A DNA stretch of 64,000 bases from Alphaproteobacteria bacterium (GCA_033762625.1 JANRLI010000005.1:170835-234834); one strand, 5' to 3'; shown: positions 53,273 through 54,649, counted from the stretch's first letter. Numbers and translations: made by a program. Notes: generated from the sequence alone by a model not told the origin.

Positions 53273-54649
53273 ATGAAATCATTCATTCAACCACACAGCG
53301 GAATGCGAAATGCCAATCGCGGTTTTACCCTGATTGAGCTGGTTATTGTTCTGGGTATTACCGGTTTGATTTTTTCAGGGCTTTGGGGATTGCTTACCAG
53401 CGGTAGTACTGCGCTACAGGCACAATCCGCCGCGCAGCAATACCGTCAGGTTATTGAAGCCATGCGCAAATATGTTGCAAGCGGTGTATATGCTGCGGAA
53501 GCCGATGGTAGCTTTGTTGCCGTACCGCCAACGATTGCGGATTTAAAAACCGCTAACCTTTTGCCAAGCAATTTCAATACAACCGATGCGTATGGCAATG
53601 CGATTACAACAGGCGTAAACACCATTTCTGCATCGCGCATGCAATGGCGCTTTGTTGTTTATTCTGGTACACGAACAGCTGCACCAGCTGTACTTATCCC
53701 CGATAAAGTAGGGGCGCAAATTTCATCGCTGATTGGCAGTGAAGGTGGCTTTGTGTATGGCAACGCAACCGATGGCTGCGCAGCCGCAGGCGCCGCAACC
53801 AGCACGGCGTGCGGTGCATTTAACTCCTTTGCCATGCCATTGTCAGATTTTAACATTCTTGCGGGCCGTGGCCGTATTGTTGCACAGGCCTATACCGTTG
53901 ATACCAATACCGGTACCGCGCCGTGGTTATACCGCAAGGCATCGACCAGTGCAGAACAGCGCACCATGCAAGAAAACATGCTGTTCAACGCTGGCCTTTC
54001 ACTATCGATGCAAACCAGCAATATCTTGATGGGCAATGGCAACATTGTTATGGGCGGCAGCGGTAATATATCAATGGGTAGCACCAACGGGGCAACAAGC
54101 GGGGCAACAGGTATTTTGTATATGGGCGGCGCAGGAATACGCAATCTAACCCAAATCAATCAAAGCCCTGCTTCGGGACAGCCCAACTTAGCTGTGTTTG
54201 CCAACAATCTTGCAATGACATCGAACACCAGTATCGACGTCGTCAGTGGCGCTACCTTCAACGTCAGCACCACGTCAGGAACGGCCGCAACCCTTTCGAT
54301 TGTTGGCCGTGGTACAGCCGATACGTTTGAAGCAGGTAAATTTATTTATACATCGGACGTGAACACCAAAGAAAATATCCGGCCGATTGAAAATGCGCTA
54401 AGCCGTGTATTGCAGCTTCGCGGTATGAACTATGATTGGAAGGGAACCCATGGTTCCGATATCGGGTTGATTGCGCAGGATGTACAAAAAGTATTCCCAG
54501 AGCTTGTAACCAAGATTTCGGATAAGCGATTGGGCGTTGATTATCCCAAGATGATTGCGCCAATCGTTGAAGCCATCCGCCAGCTCAAGATGGAAAACGA
54601 TGCCCTGCGCGCCAAGGTAGAAGAGCTGGAGAAGCAGAAAGCCAAGTAA
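53273..54649 (+). CDS. pilV: PilV-like minor (tip) prepilin fused to a tail-fibre-like domain and a C-terminal Peptidase_S74 intramolecular chaperone domain
   Basis: The prepilin site is NRG|FTLIELVIVLGITGLIFSG, followed by a Gly-rich repetitive middle (GNGNIVMGGSGNISMGS...). The C-terminus closely follows the S74 domain consensus: SDVNTKENIRPIENALSRVLQLRGMNYDW...IGLIAQDVQKVFPELV...VDYPKMIAPIVEAIRQL. Confidence 0.8.
   Translation: MKSFIQPHSGMRNANRGFTLIELVIVLGITGLIFSGLWGLLTSGSTALQAQSAAQQYRQVIEAMRKYVASGVYAAEADGSFVAVPPTIADLKTANLLPSNFNTTDAYGNAITTGVNTISASRMQWRFVVYSGTRTAAPAVLIPDKVGAQISSLIGSEGGFVYGNATDGCAAAGAATSTACGAFNSFAMPLSDFNILAGRGRIVAQAYTVDTNTGTAPWLYRKASTSAEQRTMQENMLFNAGLSLSMQTSNILMGNGNIVMGGSGNISMGSTNGATSGATGILYMGGAGIRNLTQINQSPASGQPNLAVFANNLAMTSNTSIDVVSGATFNVSTTSGTAATLSIVGRGTADTFEAGKFIYTSDVNTKENIRPIENALSRVLQLRGMNYDWKGTHGSDIGLIAQDVQKVFPELVTKISDKRLGVDYPKMIAPIVEAIRQLKMENDALRAKVEELEKQKAK

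Follow-up and report, generated by a model that had tools for sequence, protein, structure and literature searches.

How does a type IV pilin come to end in a chaperone domain known from the tail fibres of phages, and what would a pilus do with such a domain? The question is raised by a gene in a stretch of 64,000 nucleotides from an alphaproteobacterium (GCA_033762625.1, JANRLI010000005.1:170835-234834), referred to here as the window, with positions counted from its first letter. The open reading frame (ORF) at 53273..54649 (+) encodes a prepilin of 458 residues, with the translation quoted in the initial annotation. That a prepilin signal, a PilV-like region and a Peptidase_S74 (S74) domain are joined in this one protein is certain. 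As for its function, we consider it probable that the protein is a homotrimeric, PilV-like tip adhesin and initiator of pilus assembly, whose chaperone would bring three copies together in the periplasm before removing itself by self-cleavage. The gene and the parts of its product are as follows.

53273..54649, + strand: PilV-like prepilin of 458 residues that ends in a Peptidase_S74 domain; stop codon at 54647-54649
53273..53323, + strand: class III (prepilin) leader, residues 1-17, with Gly17 as its last residue; matched by N_methyl and IV_pilin_GFxxxE
53324..54034, + strand: mature pilin module, residues 18-254, comprising the alpha1 helix, a globular beta-sheet domain and a junction motif
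54035..54352, + strand: shaft rich in Gly, Ser, Thr and Asn, followed by a variable distal segment, residues 255-360
54353..54646, + strand: Peptidase_S74 domain (intramolecular chaperone auto-processing, ICA) and C-terminal helix, residues 361-458

The N-terminus bears the signal that places a protein among the type IV pilins (NRG|FTLIELVIVLGITGLI). The short leader ends in NRG|FTLIE, with Glu22 at position +5, and the region is matched by N_methyl at residues 12-37 (E 8.9e-7; Pfam, cut-off 21.2), while the NCBIfam model IV_pilin_GFxxxE (TIGR02532) also matches the protein. The prepilin peptidase is predicted from these residues to cut at G17|F18. Within a family set of at least 133 cluster representatives that combine a prepilin with S74 in full-length architecture, G17, F18 and E22 are kept in at least 95% of the 133 relatives.

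The C-terminal S74 domain, which had been recognised from its likeness to the consensus of phage chaperones, is genuine by both its sequence profile and its modelled fold. The Pfam model PF13884 is matched over its whole length (residues 361-413 against all 58 profile positions; 64.3 bits against a cut-off of 22, E 1.2e-17). A profile built from 35 relatives matches, among PDB sequences, the long tail fibre of phage S16 (6f45, 7.8e-12), a further tail fibre (8jov, 9e-12), the ICA domain of MyRF (7dc3, 1.5e-6) and the phi29 appendage (3gud), and in a library of viral models 249 entries match the pilin at E<=1e-3, almost all of them S74 or tail-fibre proteins. The AlphaFold2 monomer has a mean predicted local distance difference test score (pLDDT) of 75.5, with values of 72-90 across residues 361-458, and Foldseek places the modelled C-terminus on MyRF 7dc3 (E 1.4e-5, target template-modelling score 0.71, root-mean-square deviation 2.7 A, 130 columns) and on the endosialidase chaperone 3gw6 (probability 0.98).

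The catalytic residues of this domain are equally well kept. Solved S74 domains use a Ser-x4-Lys dyad, namely S911/K916 in endoNF, S587/K592 in MyRF and S1264/K1269 in T5 pb1 (PMC8326128, PMC4690869), to which Ser361 (codon 54353-54355) and Lys366 (codon 54368-54370) correspond in the pilin. S361, D362 and K366 are invariant among the 35 aligned relatives, and the S-D-x3-K motif is present in 133/133 cluster representatives. Cleavage had been placed by the initial annotation between S361 and D362, which is off by one position. In T5 pb1 (Thr1263-Ser1264; PMC4690869) as in MyRF (P586-S587; PMC8326128), the bond that is cut precedes the catalytic serine, and therefore the cut expected here is T360|S361. 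By this analogy, Thr360 is predicted to be the P1 residue and the C-terminus of the mature protein; the P1 residue differs among family members, Thr and Ser being the commonest. Cleavage by S74 domains requires the assembled trimer (PMC4690869, PMC8326128), and in T5 pb1 the removal of the chaperone unmasks receptor binding (PMC4690869).

The dyad bears directly on a first alternative, in which S74 trimerises the pilin without ever being released, so that the domain and its coiled coil form a permanent cap or knob at the tip. Such a cap would be in keeping with the C-terminal helix at residues 424-457, which is well kept and modelled with high confidence, and with the finding that trimerisation of MyRF is driven mainly by its chaperone domain (PMC8326128). 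However, Ser361 and Lys366 are needed solely for cleavage and none of the 133 members has lost them, and a chaperone that is retained in T5 pb1 blocks receptor binding (PMC4690869), all of which makes a permanent cap unlikely.

The homotrimeric tip adhesin proposed here also draws on the pilin module, for which the annotation had claimed a constant region like that of shufflon proteins. This likeness holds in a direct comparison with the PilV of the Xanthomonas citri plasmid plA, both by profile-to-sequence alignment with hhalign (98.9% probability, E 4e-17, 217 columns) and by BLASTP (E 9e-19, residues 11-263), but not at the level of the Pfam family, as Shufflon_N (PF04917) gives no match to the 458-residue protein at E<=1, while the plA PilV itself scores 4e-65. 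When residues 1-247 are compared with 72,556 plasmids by tblastn, the only matches are annotated pilV genes from Xanthomonas and Stenotrophomonas, with an identity of about 30% across residues 6-223; the plasmid inspected among them, X. citri plA, is typed as MPF_I. With residues 1-360 as the query, an exhaustive search of 1.84 billion representatives by phmmer retrieves 258 proteins at E<=1e-3; among the best 150 of these 258 there are 135 new representatives, 100 of which carry S74. Three of the five scanned full-length matches without S74 are Shufflon_N PilVs (P0196, P0204 and P0213; E ~1e-8 to 1e-9).

Taken as sequence evidence, these matches support the view that residues ~12-254 are a diverged constant region of PilV. 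The modelled pilin fold consists of a helix at 20-69 and strands at 110-207 (pLDDT 73-91), and the globular domain holds a conserved Cys169/Cys180 pair and a junction motif of the form NTM...M.GN.I. A word-indexed homology search with the N-terminal 247 residues (53273-54013) returned no match, although the full-length query had given 36 relatives and phmmer likewise many; this null is put down to the sensitivity of a word-indexed search, whose negative outcomes call for caution. Nor did a megablast search of 51300-56600 against the plasmids give any match. The classical PilVs examined contain no S74 domain and match no tail-fibre PHROG family, and the idea that PilV in general derives from phage fibres was consequently dropped.

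The genetic setting agrees with the homology. Among the pilin genes of a pilL-N-O-P-Q-R-S operon, the one studied here comes last and occupies the slot of pilV, and the order DotC-DotB-...-PilL-N-O-P-Q-R-S-...-PilV is common to the window and to the conjugative plasmid plA of X. citri. The absence of a shufflon, as initially annotated, is borne out within 52500-56100, where the search for shufflon-like or other inverted repeats gives only pairs at chance level.

Between the pilin module and the chaperone lies the segment that was initially described as Gly/Asn/Ser-rich and shaft-like, a description that fits its composition, since Gly, Ser, Thr and Asn make up 48% of residues 226-360. Its periodicity, of 7-8 and 14-16 residues, is weak; the autocorrelation reaches 0.13-0.18 at its peaks (8 and 14-16 residues), too little for a defined repeat to be called. 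Conservation over 133 family members, taken as how often the most common residue occurs at a position and averaged for each region, is distributed along the protein in the following way.

Alpha1 helix: 0.67, the highest in the protein
Pilin globular domain: 0.47
Segment 263-353: 0.28, with 25% gaps; the least conserved part and the richest in insertions and deletions
S74 core: 0.57
C-terminal helix, residues 424-457: 0.55-0.64

Between the junction motif and the catalytic serine, family members have from 67 to 233 residues. Phage receptor-binding proteins hold a hypervariable stretch directly ahead of a conserved chaperone, and the succession of a conserved pilin module, a variable segment at 263-353 and a conserved S74 domain is the pattern expected of a receptor-binding end.

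The conservation of the alpha1 helix also bears on a second alternative, in which the protein would not be a pilus subunit at all, but a pilin-like fibre anchored in the membrane or borne by a pseudopilus, either retained in the envelope or exported by the pilus machinery working as a secretion system, and serving at the surface independently of the PilS filament. There are reasons to consider it: type IVb systems export TcpF and CofJ via a minor pilin (PMC6048534), relatives of the S74 pilin are annotated as 'pseudopilin PulG' by JGI, and the tip location of PilV-type pilins is itself unresolved, with no direct demonstration (PMC9045228). Nevertheless, we judge it improbable, because the most conserved part of the protein is precisely the alpha1 helix with its Glu5, as expected for packing in a filament core, and because the gene combines the pilV slot with homology to PilV, a genetically defined pilus adhesin.

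For the homotrimeric tip adhesin, the following course of events can be proposed. The prepilin would be inserted in the inner membrane via its alpha1 helix, with the remainder of the chain in the periplasm, where the S74 domains and C-terminal helices would bring three copies into register and template a trimeric fibre or beta-helix from residues 255-360. In a properly formed trimer, Lys366 would activate Ser361 for the cut at T360|S361, made in every chain, and the chaperones of ~11 kDa would be discarded. Residues 1-17 would be removed by a prepilin peptidase, and the homotrimer of residues 18-360 would seed the assembly of the PilS filament and end up at the pilus tip. There, the variable distal end would act as the adhesin that chooses the target cell, as the shufflon-switched C-termini do in the PilVs of R64 and TP114, with the difference that the adhesin would be diversified by divergence in the segment preceding the chaperone and not by DNA inversion. 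We infer cleavage, trimerisation and tip location alike, and the scheme accords with what is established, namely that S74 cleavage depends on the trimer and that type IVb minor pilins such as CofB are homotrimeric tip initiators (PMC6048534). In IncI plasmids, moreover, recipient specificity lies with the C-termini of PilV, which act as adhesins (PMC9045228).

Several observations weigh against this scheme. The shaft alone (226-355) has no PHROG match at E<=0.01, so a triple beta-helix is not demonstrated. The tail-fibre PHROG alignments of the full-length protein begin at residues 204-266; given the null search of 226-355, homology of the shaft to phage fibres is not claimed, and the phage homology is therefore limited to the S74 part. 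Accordingly, of the receptor-binding-fibre module that had been proposed as grafted onto the pilin, only the chaperone is demonstrated. In the AlphaFold2 monomer, residues 210-280 are unreliable and no regular structure appears at 290-360. We know of no characterised precedent for the folding of S74 in the periplasm, the phage and MyRF examples being cytoplasmic. Neither CofB nor TcpB was matched by the profile among all PDB sequences, where the alpha1 matches are to major pilins only, and therefore the likeness to homotrimeric tips is functional only. No relaxase was recognised within the window, and no PilU-type prepilin peptidase is present in the type IVb operon; therefore, the PilS- and PilV-like pilins would be processed by the TadV-like enzyme encoded downstream or by one encoded elsewhere.

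A bolder version of the homotrimeric tip adhesin, which we put forward tentatively and as the less probable of the two, would make S74 a checkpoint of type IV filament assembly. Only a homotrimer in register would shed its chaperone, seed the pilus and pass the secretin, and the tip would then be a receptor-binding fibre in the style of phages. Were this so, the PilV-like clade, together with an independent fusion in Oligoflexia and possibly others, would have taken the phage route to diversified trimeric adhesins, replacing the switching of shufflons and directing a Dot/Icm system to its target cells.

How widespread the combination is, and whether it is real, can be judged from its relatives. 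A first homology search gave 36 full-length prepilin and S74 proteins with 28-98% identity, from NCBI, ENA, JGI and Logan assemblies. The relatives that have a name are proteins of alphaproteobacterial metagenome-assembled genomes (MAGs), called 'tail fiber domain-containing protein' or 'prepilin-type...'. The neighbourhood from IcmT/PilL through the Tad locus is the same in relatives at 91% and 42% identity, one of which is on a contig of 1.97 Mb. Among species-representative genomes there are only four full-length relatives, at ~30% identity (L001-L004), and therefore the lineage of the window is absent from the species-representative set.

An unrelated fusion of a prepilin to S74 is found in an Oligoflexia MAG (L046:5206-6288, + strand; N_methyl 8.9e-7, S74 1.1e-17), and more than one origin of the pairing is probable. 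Less strong as candidates are two further proteins, P0094, in which S74 is present and N_methyl scores under the Pfam cut-off, and P0042, a Spirochaetota protein of 799 residues with S74 and a prepilin-like motif only, and no N_methyl match. On one Rhodospirillaceae contig (L006), two S74-pilin-like genes (411-815 and 5836-7089) lie ~5 kb apart.

An artefact, either an assembly join or a decaying fusion of a pilin to a prophage tail fibre, would also produce such an ORF, and the initial annotation had named a join as one outcome that would undo its proposal. Nothing was found in favour of it, and the idea rests only on the odd pairing of domains. On the contrary, the same full-length architecture recurs in independent assemblies across the whole identity range and in 133 cluster representatives, GC content and GC content at third codon positions (GC3) are even over the pilin gene and the neighbouring genes, no phage genes flank it in the window, and synteny extends down to 30% identity. 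A join is thereby ruled out, and an artefact of any kind is barely conceivable.

Among about 8.3 million papers and preprints, no relevant one was found that deals with S74 or intramolecular chaperones together with pilins or type IV pili. A PilV-type type IVb minor pilin that uses a phage ICA domain thus appears to be undescribed, and the members of its large family bear automatic names only. The description of the protein as unusual is thus true of the literature but not of sequence space, where at least 133 clusters have the same architecture.

The most constant companion of the S74 pilin is orf176, the gene directly upstream, which is directly ahead of it in every relative examined (L081, L084 and L001-L003), down to ~30% identity; in L002, PilP, PilQ and PilR also precede the pilin. 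Its product begins MFMF... and has no leader, Gly-1 or Glu5. The AlphaFold2 model (pLDDT 80.8) shows an N-terminal helix of 50 residues followed by a beta-sheet, and the best PDB match of this fold is no better than E 0.37, so the term pilin-like comes from the predicted topology only. Judging by this model, orf176 could be a leaderless, pilin-like partner or a tip assembly factor.

Around these two genes, the window contains a Dot/Icm type IVB secretion system, the type IVb pilus genes and a Tad/Flp pilus locus, with the following features.

15086-42153, + strand: Dot/Icm type IVB secretion system (DotI x2, DotH, DotG, DotM, DotL, DotD, DotC, DotB)
42743..51195, + strand: type IVb pilus assembly genes, in the order of the Xanthomonas MPF_I plasmid
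Start at 42743, + strand: PilL/TcpQ-like
Start at 44123, + strand: PilN secretin
Start at 45820, + strand: PilO
Start at 47072, + strand: PilP-like
Start at 48065, + strand: PilQ ATPase
Start at 50110, + strand: PilR platform protein
51327-51956 and 52001-52588, + strand: two tandem PilS/bundlin-like major-pilin paralogues (Bundlin match; prepilin motif in the ORF at 52001; PilS/Bundlin likewise in relatives)
52709..53239, + strand: orf176, the next gene upstream from the S74 pilin; unmatched in Pfam, PHROG and PDB
54680..54714, no strand assigned: strong hairpin separating the pilin gene from the convergent ORF 54740-55156, with arms of 17 nt at 94% complementarity and runs of A and T on its flanks
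54740-55156, - strand: Cys-rich ORF of 138 residues with an apparent N-terminal signal peptide, convergent with the pilin gene
55685-62460, + strand: complete-looking Tad/Flp pilus locus (Flp pilin, TadV-type peptidase, RcpC, secretin, TadZ, TadA)
55685-55864, + strand: Flp pilin
55985-56509, + strand: short TadV-type prepilin peptidase (A24), the one nearest to the type IVb operon

The Dot/Icm cluster adjoins the genes for aconitase and formate-tetrahydrofolate ligase (9377-14184), and, given these neighbours, it is chromosomal. Three large ORFs in the Dot/Icm region (23954-27049, 32214-33764 and 34628-36292) have no family match. The window holds two PilS/bundlin-like paralogues and the distant relative L002 five (4433-8165), which suggests diversification of the major pilin in this lineage.

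Downstream of the S74 pilin, the hairpin at 54680-54714 is likely a bidirectional terminator that closes the pilus operon. As regards the Cys-rich ORF at 54740-55156, the relatives that are 91% and 42% identical have ORFs of similar size (130 and 156 residues) at the same place and in the same orientation. The product of the window's ORF might be secreted and act together with the pilus tip, on the analogy of CofJ and TcpF.

The building of homotrimeric tips in type IVb pili and the arrangement of PilV-type adhesins are both questions on which the S74 pilin bears, and a pilin with a chaperone whose self-cleavage depends on trimerisation would offer a simple and directly testable handle on tip assembly. 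If the proposal is correct, this family would be another case, following the eukaryotic MyRF, in which a cellular protein has taken over the phage ICA domain, and would link the architecture of phage receptor-binding proteins to the choice of target by pili associated with conjugation or Dot/Icm systems. Meanwhile, the automatic label 'tail fiber domain-containing protein' may mislead the annotation of both prophages and pili.

Among known systems, one of the closest is the PilV of the IncI/MPF_I thin pili (R64, TP114 and Xanthomonas plA), whose N-terminal ~240 residues are homologous to the S74 pilin. In MPF_I systems, PilV has the same last-pilin slot beside Dot/Icm-type genes, and a role as a target-specific adhesin is presumed to be shared (PMC9045228). 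Unlike these PilVs, however, the S74 pilin is too diverged for Shufflon_N, is encoded at a chromosomal locus with no shufflon or rci-type switching, and ends in a chaperone after a segment rich in Gly, Ser, Thr and Asn, a chaperone that the classical PilVs examined do not have.

With the chaperones of phage fibres (K1F endoNF, T5 pb1, phi29 gp12 and S16 gp37), the pilin shares the full-length domain, the Ser-x4-Lys dyad, the C-terminal helix and the fold, as well as a place at the very end of the chain, behind a segment that is putatively fibrous in the pilin. The carrier, on the other hand, is a membrane-inserted prepilin whose C-terminal part is periplasmic, whereas in phages it is a cytoplasmic virion protein, and the upstream segment of the pilin, taken alone, has no detectable homology.

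CofB and TcpB, like the S74 pilin, are single large minor pilins of type IVb, in which homotrimers formed by the beta-rich C-terminal domains start assembly and occupy the tip (PMC6048534), a logic also proposed here for the S74 pilin. CofB, however, trimerises by an H-type lectin domain and without a cleavable chaperone.

The best structural match is the ICA domain of MyRF, where S74 has likewise been captured by a cellular, membrane-anchored protein and where two functional parts come apart through a self-cleavage that depends on trimerisation (PMC8326128). MyRF is eukaryotic, and its cleavage frees a transcription factor from the membrane of the endoplasmic reticulum, whereas in the S74 pilin the membrane-proximal part would stay and the chaperone would go.

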